Under the pieces are notes generated by a model that was not told the origin of the DNA, ran no database searches, and saw only the letters and a program-made list of their open reading frames with translations. Shown one piece after another: positions 1 through 61,020 of a stretch of DNA of 64,000 nucleotides (the first letter of the stretch is position 1; the number at the start of each line of letters is the position of its first letter). The DNA lies in the NCBI GenBank assembly GCA_051313645.2, contig JBNRSN020000015.1, positions 84,196,001-84,260,000 of the forward strand. Reading direction: 5' to 3'. A program made the translations under genes and the position numbers. The stretch is from Centroscyllium fabricii. Taxonomy: Eukaryota.

Positions 1-38
1 CATTTTTGGATTTTAGCGACGATCTAAGTTTATTAAAT

Positions 39-308
39 TGATACCATCAATTACTCGAGTCAGAGAGCGAGTTAACATAGGCTTTAATAAACTTAGAACA
101 AGCGTAAGGGATCACAGGTATCGTTAGTACAGTACAGTAGAGAGGAGGTCAGAACCCACGAGTGCTGACCTTTATACCCCCCAGGGTCAGAGGCGTGGCC
201 TACCCGAGGTCCTCCAGGTACAGGTCTCCCATGTCTGGCTGGGCAAGAGTAGACACGCCCTAAGGCATGTACATACACATAGTTGGTGTTATAGCCAATA
301 TCACCACA
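39..308 (-). mobile_element. 5' LTR of a Gypsy LTR retrotransposon (element continues off the left edge; putative gag ATG at 3..1)
   Basis: Minus strand reads TGTGGTGATA...TATAAA...TTATTAAAGCC...GGTATCA, the same layout as the LTRs at 12729 and 59912, followed by an AT-rich leader and ATG. Confidence 0.75.
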
Positions 309-633
309 AGTAATAAGCAGTGTCCGAACTGTGTGGCTGCATCAGAGGCATGTGGGTCTAGATCCAAGCGCTCTGGTATCAGGAGTCGATCCATCTCGAT
401 GTTTTAGTTATTAAAATTGATGGAAGGCTTTTAATAACTAAGAAATGTGGTGCATGATCCCACACAGAGTTCTCCAGGTCTAATGACTCATATCATTCTG
501 GAGTCCTTTATAAGCCAAAAGGCAGGGGCGGAGCCCAATATATACAATGGAAAGGTGGGTGGTACATGTACTCACATTACAGTTGAGTCCAGGTGAAAGC
601 ACAGGCTGATGAACATGCATATATTTCATCACA
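309..633 (-). mobile_element. 5' LTR (633-418) and gag N-terminus (394-309) of a second Gypsy element, interrupted by the element at 39-308
   Basis: LTR TGTGATGAAA...TATAAA...TTATTAAAAGCC..TCA; minus translation from 394 MDRLLIPERLDLDPHASDAATQFGHC resembles gag start MESSAVKPEKLDISPQDPATAATYEHW at 60225. Confidence 0.75.
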
Positions 634-10588: not shown

Positions 10589-13110
10589 TCAGGTTTTGAT
10601 GTTAAATTGTGCTGGTGGAATGGCTGTGCAGAGCGGCGGAATTGAAATGATCACGATGTTGTAATTGTTCTTAATGTTCAATAAAGTATATTAAAGAAAA
10701 AGTGGGTAGCACACTTGCCTCTGAGTCAGAAGGTTGTGGGTTCACGTCCCAGTCCAGCTAAGTTGACATTCCAGAGCAGTGCTGAGGGAGTGCTGCACTG
10801 TCTGAGGTGCCGTCTTTCATATGAGACGTTAAACCAAGGCACTGTCTGCTCTCTCAGGTGGACGTGAAAGGCACCATATAAATGCAAGTCTTTCATTCTT
10901 TTCTTACTGAGTTGTACTTAAATCTTTCAAGGGATTGTTTGGTTTAAATAAGGTTTTGAAGAACAGGTTGAGCAGTGTAAGATGTATCCATCAGTTAAAT
11001 GTTAAAACAACACTTATTACTGCACCATTGCAAAGCTGAAAAGGTTTATTTCTAAAACTATTAATCTGACCACTGATTATCAATAAAATTAAGGCAATAA
11101 ACTTGATGTAAGCCAAGCTTGCAACTCATCTTCTAAGTGATATTCTATATTGACTCTCATAAATTAACCAACTCCTGAAATAGAGCCCCATATAAATATA
11201 TCAAGTTACCATAATCTTCTATTCCATTCTAAAAGAAGATACATTTCTTTGTACTTTACTGACTGTTTTAGCATAAAACAATAGGATTTTACCTAATTTT
11301 AATATCCTATATAATCAGTAGATGGTCCTGTTACTCTGTGTTCTTATTGAAATCCTTTCACCTATGCTGTGGCTTACTTAAAGTAATGCTTCTGGTGTTG
11401 TCTACTGATACTCTCACTTAATTTACACAAGATTTAGTGTATGTGTAATGTAATATCTATTATTATAACCACCTTTCTGTGTAACTTTCAACATGTTATG
11501 GTTATTGTCTATAATAGTCATCCTGACTGTTAAGTTAATGGGATAGATCCACTTATCCAACAAGGGTTGTAAAATAATGATGGATGGTCGCAGCTTTATT
11601 CTTACCCTATAACAGGGTAACATTCAACACTGTCGAGCAATGATATTCATCAACTGAGTGCCCAGTGGACCATGGCTGGAAGGTGACCCTCTGCACAGTC
11701 AAGAATGAGTATTTATTAGGCACACGGTCAGTCCATATGTCAGTGATAAAGTGAATAAATCCCATTCTACATCTTTTATCTGCGGAAGCACTTTATTTTC
11801 TACAGATGGATAGGTATTTGAAATAATTGGATGTGAAAAGTGAAATCTGGAAGAAATAGCATATCTGGTTTGGAAATAATTAATAAATGCCAGGCATCTT
11901 GAATCCTATACAATAACATGTGGATGGAGGTTAGGAGCTATTTTTGCCCCAATCAACAGTGTAATGTTGGTGGTTGGCTTGCAGAGAATTTGGGTACAGG
12001 TTTAAAGACAGTCAATTGTGATTTCCCCTTCTCTAAGTAAATGCCTTGAAAACTGTAAAGTGATGAAAAGTGAACATAAGAAACCATATGGAGGATAGCA
12101 ACAGAGTTCATATTAATTACTGTACAACTGGTAAAATTAGCATTATAAGAGCCAAGGCTTGATAAATTGCCATTATACTAAGAGCTTGGGTCAAATTTCT
12201 ATTTTTGTCCCCCAAAACGTCACCATCAAAATTACCGACACTCCAATCAATTCTATAGGATGAAAACAGAACAGTTAATGTGACGGCACAATCATACAAT
12301 GTCTATTTTTCTTACTTTTTCCCACCAATATGAACAAATTGCAATCAGTTTATCATAAGATATGAGTTTAAATAATTACGGACGAGAGAAGTTGTTTGCT
12401 CTGCTTATTTTAAATGGGTTAACTATTTTGTTATAATAGTGAGCAGAGGAATGTCACCATAGCATGCTTACCAATTTGTTAAAGATAATGCACAGAAGAA
12501 TTCTTACCTGGAAATGTTTATGCTATGAAATTTGTAATTTTTGATGTTAGTGACAGTATCTTTGTTCCGATTACTTCCACTGATGCTTAAAGTAATTCTT
12601 TGCATTAGCCATGTTAAAATATTTATATTCCAACATAACAGAAACACAGAAACACAGAAGATAGGAGCAGCAGTAGGCCATTCGGCCCTTCGAGCCATTT
12701 TGACAAGATCATGGCTCATCATCCAAACTGTGATAAACTATAATCTGTGCATTTATCACTCATCGTGTTGTATATAATAGGGAACCATAATCTGTACATT
12801 TATCACTCATTGTGTTGTGTATAATAGGGGTGACTCACTTTGCCTGAGACTGTATGTAAATATGTTATGTGTGACTCACCCCAGGTAATGTGATCACGTG
12901 GCCCAACGGACTTCGCCCTTAATTCCTCCCCTCAGGACAGGCTTATAACCTCTGGTTCGCCACCTGAGGGCCAGATTCGTACCGAGCTCTGTTGGACCAT
13001 GTCTAGTTCTAAGATATAATAAAAGCCTTTAATTACTTTCATAAGACGGCCTCCGCTAGCAGTTATTCGTGCTTTAATTTTATTATATCTTTGTTATTTT
13101 CTGGACAACG

Positions 13111-26904: not shown

Positions 26905-29900
26905 TGTCATAGATGGAATTCTCCTTTAAGGATTCCATCTTTGAATTCTGGTGTTTAATTCATTTATTACCTTGTTTTCTTGTAAATTACTGCTAATTGT
27001 ACCTCGTTTATCATTTGCATGTATTGGTGGGACAGAGCTGGTCAATCTAATTGGCTGGAGCTGTATATATGCTTTGGGTTGGCAGCTGGAGGTTGCCGGA
27101 TCGTTATTTTCTGTTACTTGATATCTGTGTTCGGTTGCTACTCTCTGTTCCTGTCGTATTGGATTTCTACCTGTTACAGAGGAATTGGATGTACTGCTGA
27201 ACTCAGTGCTGGAATTCATCCCTTCGGTGAAGCGGATTACTTGGAGTTGATCGGTTCCTAGTATTGGACTTATTTCTGTTTATCACCTGAACTCTGGTTT
27301 GGACTTGTTAATTACTATTACCAGTACTCTGGATTATAGACTTGTTTATCCTCTGTTGAACACTGCTGTTAATGACTGTATATATATATATATATATATT
27401 TGAGGACTCAGAAATAAAAGGGTTTTATTTCTAAAGACGGACTTCCGGTGTTCTGCATTTGGGCCCTACCACAAACCCTTACAGAACGATCCGGCCAGAA
27501 ATGGACCCAGCAGAGACACTGAAGCATCTAGAACACCTCGAGGGCGCCCTATTTCACCAGGGGCAGACCTTGATGAATATTTGCACTCGGATGGAGCAGT
27601 TTACCGCTGCCTGGAACCTGCGGGTAGCGTCGGATTCGGCAGGGGTCCCGCTACCACCACCTCCGGCTCCAGAAGGGGGGTTGGCACCCATGCCTCAACT
27701 ACTAGCTCTCACACCCGAACCCCGAGTCGGGGTACCGGAACGGTATGCCGGTGAACCCGAGCAGTGTGATCCTTTTCTCACAAGCTGTTCCATCCTGTTT
27801 TCTTTGCAGCCCCACACCTTTGCCAATGGGAAGGCAAGGGTAGCGTTTGTAATCAATCATCTCACAGGAAGAGCCCGGCTTTGGGGAACCGCTGAGTGGG
27901 AGAGAGATACTCAGGCTTGCTCTTCTTTCGAGGCGTTCTCCACCGAATTAAGAAGGGTGTTTGGCAGGGTGTCCTTCGGCTCTGAAGCAGCTCGGGGACT
28001 CATGAATCTGAGCCAGGAAAATTAGACAGTGGCTGATTATTCTATTGACTTTCGAATCAGGGCTCGTCGGAGTAATTGGAACCAGGCTGCATTACGTGAG
28101 GTTTTTCTTCATGGCCTTTCTGAATACATCAAGGATGAACTGGTCTCCTACGATCTTCCTCCCACCTTGGATGAACTAATTTATCTTGCCACCAGGATCG
28201 ATCTTCGGATCCAGGCGTGTCGACGTGAGAGACGACTGGGAACGTCTGGTCGACATCCGCCGAGTCGGACTCAAGAGGTATTCATGGCACCCAGAGAGAC
28301 TGTGATAGCAGGGTCAGAGCCAGTGGGCCCCGAACCAATGCAGTGGGGTCGCACTCAAGGGAGATTCGTGGCGCCCAGAGATACTGCGACAGCAGGGGCA
28401 GAACCAGGGGGTCCAGAACCAATGCAGTTGGGTCGCACCAGTCTTCGGTTGGCGAAGCATAAGGGACCACACTCACCAGTCAATGGAGTCGTAATGGTGA
28501 GCCGAACTCCTGCTGGACTCTCTTCCAATCCACGACCCTTGTGTCAAGCCAAACTTCTTCTCCCCAGGGGATCCCAGACTCTCGTCATCTGTATTGACTC
28601 GGGAGCGGACATCAATATCATCGATGAGGATCTGGTCACGCAACTGGAGATTGACCGGGTGCCACTGCCACAGCCGGTTCCTGTCAACGCCTTAGACGGC
28701 CATCTCCTGGGAACGGTGACACATCAGACCTCACCTGTTCTTATGCTTCTGTCCGGGGATCATCAGGAGAGCATTCAGTTCCATATCTTGAGATCACCTC
28801 GGATTCCGTTAATTCTGGGACACACTTGGCTTCGCCACCACAACCCTCACATTGACTGGAACACGGGAGCTATTTCGGGCTGGAGTCCCTCCTGTCACCA
28901 GGTCTGTCTGAAACAGGCTCGGACTTCGTTGCTTCGCTCGACGGACCGATACCCGCCTGCTGCCAACCGTCGTCGTTCTGGGGCCCCTGAAAATCAGGTT
29001 GGACAGAAGGGGTGGCTCCCTCCTCCTCGTGAGCTCCACGGTGGGTTGGTCTACACTGTTCGTCACCTACTTCGTTCCCGTCATCATGGGATAGGACTTC
29101 AGTACCTGGTGGACTGGGAGGGGTATGGTCCAGAAGAGAGGTCCTGGGTTTCTGATCACCACATAATGGATCTGCAACTCATTGACGACTTTCACTGGAG
29201 GCACCCCGACCAGCCAAGTAAGAGGACTGCGAATCATGAGGAGTCTGGACAAGTGATCGGCTCCATACAGTTCCAGGAGAGCCTGACCGAGGAGGAGGAA
29301 TCTGCTGATGAGGAAGAATCTGCTGATGAGGAGGATTTCTTTCAATCTGATGATGAGATGGACATAGAGGAGGGCTTCGAGGACTATTAGTTTCTCCCCC
29401 GCACCCCTCCACCCACCCGATCCGGCATTTGGGGTTTTGGGACGTCAGGAGTCGTCCATTGAGGGGGGGGGGGTTCTGTCATAGATGGAATTCTCCTTTA
29501 AGGATTCCATCTTTGAATTCTGGTGTTTAATTCATTTATTACCTCGTTTTCTTGTAAATTACTGCTAATTGTACCTCGTTTATCATTTGCATGTATTGGT
29601 GGGAAAGAGCTGGTCAATCTAATTGGCTGGAGCTGTATATATGCTTTGGGTTGGCAGCTGGAGGTTGCCGGATCGTTATTTTCTGTTACTTGATATCTGT
29701 GTTCGGTTGCTACTCTCTGTTCCTGTCGTATTGGATTTCTACCTGTTACAGAGGAATTGGATGTACTGCTGAACTCAGTGCTGGAATTCATCCCTTCGGT
29801 GAAGCGGATTACTTGGAGTTGATCGGTTCCTAGTATTGGACTTATTTCTGTTTATCACCTGAACTCTGGTTTGGACTTGTTAATTACTATTACCAGTACT

Positions 29901-30059
29901 CTGGATTATAGACTTGTTTATCCTCTGTTGAGCACTGCTGTTAATGACTGTATATATATATATATATATATATATTTGAGGACTCAGAAATAAAAGGGTT
30001 TTATTTCTAAAGACGGACTTCCGGTGTTCTGCATTTGGGCCCTACCACAAACCCTTACA
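26905..30059 (+). mobile_element. Young non-autonomous sushi/chromovirus-type LTR retrotransposon
   Basis: LTRs 26905-27483 and 29477-30059 (3 substitutions plus a TA-repeat length difference by eye), TSD CCAAG, G-run PPT 29461-29473. Confidence 0.96.
27501..29390 (+). pseudogene. Gag-protease-chromodomain fusion ORF with one in-frame TAG (28023-28025); no RT/RNase H/integrase core
   Basis: PERYAGEP..CDPFL (sushi/PEG10-type capsid), IDSGA protease, [16 protein letters not shown] chromodomain, acidic tail; ORFs 27459 and 28029 share a frame. Confidence 0.88.
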
Positions 30060-59911: not shown

Positions 59912-61020
59912 CGTGGTAACCATTGTATGTCTACCATACCGCTGTACCACTATGGCTAATGATGGGCTGTGCAGATGTTAGGCACAGCCCTGTAAACTGT
60001 GACACTGTTGGGAGCCAGGTCAGCCACACCTCCAACTCCTCCCCCAGGTGAGGCCCCGTTATAGGTGAGATCTGACCGAGGCTCCTTCATTCCTGTACTG
60101 TAGTTCGTCTGGAGAGTAGCTCCGTTCTTAGCAATTAAAAGCCTTTAGTTTCGGTAACTACGCGTCGACTCTTTTAATCGAAGATATTGACGATACGTCA
60201 ATTTTAATTGCTAATTATTTTTAAATGGAGAGCAGCGCAGTTAAACCTGAGAAGCTGGACATCAGTCCCCAGGACCCTGCCACTGCCGCCACGTACGAAC
60301 ACTGGTTCGGTCTACTGGAGGCCTACATGGACGCCGCCAAGGCTACAACAGACAGGGACAAGCTGCATGTCCTACGATCGAGGATCTCCAGCAGGGTATT
60401 CACCCTCATCAGGAACGCCTCAACCTACTTAGCGGCTGTACAAATTCTGAAGAAATGTTACGAGCGCCCGGTCCATTCAGTCTACGCCCGACATGTGCTG
60501 GCGACCAGATCTCATCTACTGGGTGAGTCCAATGAGCAGTTCGAGCAAGCGCTCCTGGCCCTGGTACGGGTCTGTGGCTGCAAAGGCACAACAGTTGAAG
60601 AGGAGGAAGAACTCCTCGTTCGGGACGCTTATGTTACAGGACTGAAGTGTGTGGAAGCCCGCCAGCGGCTACTAGAGAAAGACGAATTATCCCTCGAGGA
60701 GGCGACTAAGATAGCCAAATCAGTAGAGGGGGCCCGAAGCAAGTTACAGGCATACAGCGGCACTAACCCGCAAGCCTACAACATATGAGCCGCGCCACAA
60801 CAGGCCCAGGCCTGGGCGCAACGGGTCGAGGCCCCCACGATGGCCGCGACGGCCACTAAAGACACTAAAGACAAGCGCTGCTACTTCTGCAGCCAGGGAC
60901 TGCACCCAAGAGCGAAATGCCCAGCCAGGACGGCGACCTGCGAGAAATGTGCGAAGAAGGGACACTACGCTAAAGCCTGCAGATCAGCCCCAGCAGCGCC
61001 CAACTCAAGGTACAACAGTG
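59912..61020 (+). mobile_element. Gypsy element: 5' LTR (59912-60200) and gag (from 60225), interrupted by a related element
   Basis: Gag similar to 13111; CYFCSQGLH..CEKCAKKGHYAKAC knuckles. Confidence 0.9.

Follow-up and report, generated by a model that had tools for sequence, protein, structure and literature searches.

How does a retrotransposon without a tRNA site start its reverse transcription? The left edge of a 64,000-nt stretch of the Centroscyllium fabricii genome (contig JBNRSN020000015.1, positions 84,196,001 to 84,260,000; hereafter the window) raises this question, as 15 nt just past the long terminal repeat (LTR) of a Ty3/Gypsy retrotransposon, element A, are the exact reverse complement of a segment inside that same LTR. 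To our knowledge, self-priming has been shown experimentally only for Tf1; it is regarded as a hallmark of the Tf1/sushi group, with a few further cases predicted in plants.

A self-complementary junction in element A

The initial annotation had described 23-37 and 83-97 as perfect reverse complements, the first placed 1 nt past the LTR end and the second containing ATTAAA followed by GCC, and these descriptions hold in full: pairing is exact over 15 bp across a 45-nt loop with a mismatch at each flank, 23-37 begins 1 nt beyond the LTR end, and 83-97 ends in ATTAAA with GCC next. Gag-pol runs on leftwards from position 1, as had been expected, and 39-308 has a partner in a 98.9% identical 3′ LTR (L013 5262-4994, 4.2 kb left of the window) as well as many genomic copies. 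The features of element A within the window are:

39..308, minus strand: 5′ LTR of element A, 270 nt, TG...CA; the Ty3/Gypsy retrotransposon continues left of the window
23..37, minus strand: candidate primer-binding site, 15 nt from 1 nt past the LTR end, pairing with 83-97
83..97, minus strand: LTR arm and predicted 3′ end of the self-primer, terminating in the poly(A) hexamer ATTAAA
79..82, minus strand: GCCT just inside the stem, conserved among families, with a predicted cut at AAA/GCC
171..176, minus strand: TATAAA box, ~80 nt upstream of the arm, with a predicted start near 138-148
1..3, minus strand: gag ATG, start codon of gag-PR-RT-RH-IN
309..313, minus strand: target-site duplication (TSD) TTACT, the same 5 bp on both sides of the element

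Element A is 4515 nt long, has the order gag-PR-RT-RH-IN (Pfam and motif positions) with no chromodomain found by Pfam, and carries a polypurine tract (PPT) before its 3′ LTR. The window copy contains a single stop codon, at codon 995, and 13 of 18 other copies read have no stop before the end. At the catalytic motif of its reverse transcriptase (RT), residue 637 (L013:6222-9203, minus strand), the copy reads YLDN and not YxDD, with YLDD in some relatives. A genome query with LTR A gave 349 candidates (40 scored), and the same 15-mer was found 1 nt past the 5′ LTR in 20/20 fetched copies. The probability of a 15-mer match by chance inside a 270-nt LTR of this composition is 3e-7. Perfect stems of at least 15 bp with short loops occur six times in the 64-kb window, so the element A stem is not unique, and the evidence lies in position and covariation and not in length alone.

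The locus into which element A inserted (309-582; L013 4705-4990) was already rearranged or nested, as the truncated gag start of another element (element C) there meets an opposed LTR of another member of its family. A contig from another organism that is 99% identical to LTR A (L013 9150-9508) consists of PPT, LTR and primer site without flanks, and could be an assembly collapse, a circle or RNA. Two candidate features of element A were rejected. TGGTATCA, which ends LTR A and resembles the start of a tRNA-iMet site, sits within the LTR, and other families do not conserve it. A seeming NTACT target preference was an artefact of an LTR query that carried 12 nt of flank.

Four such stems are present in the window, the first being that of element A. 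The others, together with an internal control, are:

404..441, minus strand: third instance, in the older related element C; 13-bp stem, with the gag start interrupted at 309
13011..13091, plus strand: element B instance; 14-bp stem, 13011-13024 with 13078-13091
60128..60214, plus strand: fourth instance, 13-bp stem, in family F, whose aberrant copies map the RNA start
27095..27495, plus strand: Tf1/sushi-type control outside the clade described below; 11-nt primer at 27095-27105, site at 27485-27495

The 12-nt loop of element C reflects a deletion: of 12 family copies sampled, the 6 that include a 5′ junction have a loop of ~53 nt. Element B has LTRs at 12729-13076 and from 17124, the TSD CAAAC and no chromodomain. 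The control element (26905-30059) is chromodomain-bearing, RT-less and of the Tf1/sushi type, with its 11-nt self-primer 31 nt after TATA.

Covariation of the stem across families

The analysis covers 118 gag 5′ junctions; another 15 matches were excluded because the N-terminus was absent or too little DNA lay upstream. In 102 of the junctions the right arm begins 1 nt after the LTR CA and forms at least 11 of 13 Watson-Crick pairs, namely in junctions from arbitrary genome stretches (18/22), from around the window (12/12), from targeted copies (46/52) and from metagenome contigs (26/32). Drawn from the junctions that passed this stem filter, 31 families (below 80% gag identity) were obtained from the genome and metagenome contigs. 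By comparing own with swapped partners at positions 5-13, we found that own partners pair at 8.77 of 9 positions and swapped partners at 4.95, with a maximum of 6.16 in 20,000 permutations. Aligned with MAFFT, 13 junctions have 98.1% of their cells paired, and 9 of the 13 pairs show double changes, while sliding the register by 1-3 columns lowers pairing to 22-53%. Both analyses show that the compensatory change noted earlier between element A and the 13011 case is real and general. Within families, 19 double changes were counted along with 43 and 11 single changes, the single counts being inflated by misaligned or deleted copies.

Chance, or identity by descent inside one repeat family, is an extremely improbable source of this pattern: the arms are A+T rich and a foreign arm in the same scan reaches 11 of 13 in 11.4% of trials, but it reaches 13 of 13 in 0.1%, own-partner pairing is kept at RT identities down to 43%, and the swapped-partner and slid-register controls refute it. 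The self-pairing site is real, clade-wide and covarying. It lies 1 nt past the LTR and is complementary to a segment ending at AAA/(G/A)CC, and no tRNA site accompanies it: a TGG site (the complement of the tRNA 3′ end) within 0-5 nt of the LTR was found in 0/31 families, and the site itself varies between families. The LTR end and the gag start are separated by 15-35 nt in 27 of 30 families. The bases just inside the junction are G, C, C and T in 26, 27, 28 and 28 of 31 families, and the arm carries a poly(A) hexamer in 23, with the stem kept without a canonical hexamer in the other 8. Fold prediction gives a local 5′ hairpin in 26 of 30 cases. TATA at a distance similar to that in element A, within 100 nt, was found in just 2 of 15 metagenome families.

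The G-C pair at stem position 10, counted from the junction, is conserved in 28 of 31 families amid variable neighbours, and is possibly a recognition point. By eye, GCCT or ACCT past the junction can pair with AGGC or AGGT in the loop at four metagenome loci (L083, L085, L088 and L159), a pairing seen in some families and absent from element A. Named relatives come from sharks, rays, coral, anemone, nematode, insects and spider, and viral contigs gave just 3 zinc-knuckle matches.

Placement of the clade outside Tf1/sushi

An LTR finder blind to family, applied to 872 kb, returned 35 TSD-flanked elements. Fifteen have a TGG site and a self-complementarity of 8 or less. Two are of the Tf1/sushi type; their 11 paired nt follow TATA by 31 nt and precede the hexamer by 265-308 nt. 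The remaining 18 belong to the clade, and in 14 of these the stem is perfect over 12-15 bp and lies at offset 1. The hexamer occupies the inner end of the stem, and TATA precedes the arm by 66-83 nt in 13 of the 14. Initiator-like motifs lie ~28-33 nt after TATA.

A quick, midpoint-rooted RT-RH tree of 42 rows (4 elements without an RT row and one short row were left out) places all 26 stem-bearing rows on one side of a branch with SH-aLRT 100, apart from the single Tf1-type row. RT identity of the clade to Tf1-type, Mag-like and tRNA-primed rows is 25-31%, and no chromodomain (PF00385) was found among the 120 relatives listed. The tree, the identities and the blind-finder controls together indicate elements that probably work like Tf1 and stand outside the Tf1/sushi group. 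The clade is thus non-chromoviral Ty3/Gypsy and not Tf1/sushi.

Aberrant copies and the start of the RNA

We searched for copies in which, after the LTR end and primer site, the sequence upstream of the arm reappears as its reverse complement. All four families searched gave matches (family A 6, F 114, B 11 and G 58), while reversed-control searches and a like search in a Tf1-type family gave none. These searches needed extra bases upstream of the arm, and primers ending at the stem leave no trace in them. Copies examined numbered 6/6 in family A, 75/114 in F, 11/11 in B and 25/58 in G. Among 20 aberrant copies fetched at length, 16 have a match to a 3′ LTR and 9 of these 16 have an exact 5-bp TSD by automatic call; exact TSDs mark the aberrant copies as integrated reverse-transcription products.

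Family F shows a peak: 38 of the 75 copies break off 51-54 nt upstream of the junction, 34 of them at 52-53 nt. The end point is the A of TCATTCC, an initiator motif that follows TATA by 28 nt. The other stops fall at 21-50 nt (16 copies), at 61-93 nt (4), at the LTR start (13) and beyond it (4), so that stops fill the interval of 21-54 nt and are sparse beyond it (16 versus 4, p 3e-4). Of the 38 peak copies, 26 rejoin gag at one site through a 7-nt microhomology, and this microhomology could itself favour the end point. Without these 26, there are 12 peak copies (landing elsewhere or unmapped) versus ~1 expected (p 2e-9), and the peak has p = 2e-7 after removal of two non-independent pairs. 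The hot spot for rejoining is near family F element position 444 (for instance in L234, L236 and L248), with the gag start deleted, and 28 distinct combinations of leader and landing occur among the 38 peak copies.

The family F template therefore ends 52-53 nt upstream of the junction, and a stop at the initiator puts the arm at RNA nt ~41-53 and not at the 5′ end. The peak could also come from a template switch onto uncut RNA, and would then map the start and not the primer. The initiator peak appears in family F alone: outside it we found 0/6 in R in family A, 1/11 (at 53 nt) in family B and 0/25 at the predicted 49 nt in family G. Copies reaching the LTR start make up 5/6, 5/11 and 16/25 in families A, B and G, respectively, and 10 of all 117 copies run on into PPT or pol.

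Proposed self-priming and its alternatives

From the sequence, we infer that 23-37 functions as a primer site. It would pair with the element's own LTR, and the probable primer of reverse transcription is a ~50-55 nt 5′ piece of the element's own RNA, released by a cut. Transcription would start at the initiator, ~52-53 nt upstream of the junction, and RNA nt ~41-53 would fold onto the site; the element's RNase H would then cut at AAA/GCC, as in Tf1, to leave a 3′-OH, the simplest reading being a capped primer of ~53 nt in which a leader of ~40 nt is unpaired. Poly(A) cleavage usually occurs 10-30 nt downstream of the hexamer. Since the hexamer sits at the junction, R would then extend 10-30 nt beyond it. 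Strong-stop DNA would consist of the loop only (21-66 nt) and use this stretch, between hexamer and poly(A) site, for the first strand transfer. A primer that is not removed would sometimes be copied to the cap by the plus strand, giving rise to aberrant copies. Because the minus strand offers a copied leader nothing to pair with, the leader would either rejoin through microhomology, leaving initiator stops, or anneal to R and extend as far as the LTR start, giving palindromic mini-elements. Weighing against this mechanism are the confinement of the initiator peak to family F, the microhomology and template-switch explanations of that peak, the scarcity of a comparable TATA in metagenome families, the missing outer pretzel duplex and the choice of the 31 families by the stem filter.

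Since the stem can form only at the 5′ LTR, it may in addition conceal the 5′ poly(A) signal, a second role compatible with self-priming from the RNA 5′ end. With slightly less than even confidence, we extend this to an animal-wide Ty3/Gypsy clade that would self-prime independently of Tf1 with an internal primer, the stem both masking the 5′ poly(A) signal and being cut just past it to give a ~50-nt capped primer. If true, one junction would set the primer end, the poly(A) site and the strand-transfer window, and failed genomic products would record primer length.

An alternative is that the primer is the 3′ end of genomic RNA, with the arm of the 3′ R trimmed at AAA/GCC and circularising the RNA or linking two RNAs. 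It is favoured by the many aberrant copies that extend across U3 as far as the LTR start and have a TSD at either end (7/9 in F and 8/13 in G with a whole left end), and by the copies that continue into PPT or pol. Such products would, however, also arise if plus-strand strong-stop DNA annealed to its own or another R, and the local 5′ hairpin should out-compete a distant arm. In none of the 31 families is a hexamer present 8-45 nt upstream of the junction, so polyadenylation would not end the RNA there, and this reading does not predict the initiator stop. We regard priming from the 3′ end as unlikely.

Plain Tf1 geometry, in which a second start lies at the arm and the primer is the first 13-15 nt of the packaged RNA, appears unlikely as well. 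Every self-primer described in the available text of 10.1101/2022.12.06.519325 is at the RNA 5′ end, primers ending at the stem would be invisible to our searches, and the start position in family A rests on prediction. Against this stand the spacing of TATA and arm in the perfect-stem elements, more than twice the 31 nt of both Tf1-type elements, the initiator-like motifs downstream of TATA, the filling of 21-54 nt by family F stops, and the empty matching search in the Tf1-type family.

That the stem merely masks the 5′ poly(A) signal in the manner of the HIV-1 polyA hairpin, with some other primer in use, is more improbable still. It would account for the hexamer in the arm of most families and for a partner arm at the 5′ LTR only, and HIV-1 offers a precedent in the portions of PMC2645353 available. 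Masking, however, does not need an exact start 1 nt past the LTR end, the 8 families without a hexamer keep the stem, and there is no other primer site and little room for one.

Comparison with known self-priming elements

As in the clade, Tf1, Tf2, Tj1 and other Tf1/sushi elements (chromoviral Ty3/Gypsy) have no tRNA site and a site just past the 5′ LTR that complements their own LTR. They differ from the chromodomain-free clade in forming a separate RT branch (31% identity), in pairing over 11 bp and not 13-15, and in the position of the arm: it is the first 11 nt of the RNA, 265-308 nt upstream of the poly(A) signal, in Tf1/sushi, whereas it is internal (nt ~41-53) and at the signal in the clade. 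This internal arm is the feature that separates the clade from Tf1, as judged by TATA spacing, the family F template end and, in family A, prediction. A counterpart of the outer duplex of the Tf1 pretzel, between the loop and the 25 nt after the site, was not found (own −8.1 versus swapped −9.1 kcal/mol). The loop self-fold is weakly stable (mean z −0.9), and neither pretzel nor leader pairings gained support.

HIV-1 primes with a tRNA. Its polyA hairpin, according to the available part of PMC2645353, resembles the clade stem in holding AAUAAA in a hairpin that represses 5′ polyadenylation, but it lies within R and forms at both ends, while one arm of the clade stem is outside the LTR in the primer slot. 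For Tf1, the accessible text of PMC7175516 places the RNase H cut between bases 11 and 12, and that of PMC11042837 describes a copied primer tail on about half of the cDNA, a likeness to the clade in that the primer is apparently kept and at times copied. For the plant TAR elements (Houba, Osr-1; Copia) and Tcn1, the sections available of PMC6317226 predict self-priming from a sequence 0-5 bp past the LTR that is complementary to it, and say nothing on where the primer lies relative to the start site or poly(A) signal. These elements belong to another superfamily or clade, and the TAR elements indicate that self-priming can arise outside chromoviruses. The Cigr-1 clade of Ty3/Gypsy (Ciona; molluscs) is a candidate related system. 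The portions available of PMC6238403 name this clade, with 0 occurrences of 'PBS' or 'primer binding' in its text or in the 5 supplements searched.

Within the full texts searched, self-priming is described for Tf1/sushi, Tcn1 and plant TAR only (PMC6317226, PMC4600332, PMC5341516, PMC6934838, PMC3601003, 10.1101/2022.12.06.519325), and the available portions of PMC8220671 and PMC10680173 hold nothing further on such priming. Judging from sequence comparison, the clade's internal self-primer is likely a variant of the Tf1 trick, of which no prior description was found in the literature searched. If a second, abundant clade of animal elements does use another geometry, a self-primer need not be the first bases of the RNA, and tRNA priming has been lost or replaced on more than one occasion. 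Elements that prime themselves would also evade control based on tRNA fragments, and their self-complementary site would be overlooked by LTR finders relying on tRNA-site scores.

Aberrant copies would in turn allow DNA-only mapping of start sites and primer length in any genome. Among them are palindromic mini-elements of 456-521 nt (L232, L240, L293, L298, L299, L321, L322, L336, L341 and L342), which consist of LTR, primer site and inverted R-U3, have two U3 ends and 5-bp TSDs, and were apparently integrated by integrase via two left ends.
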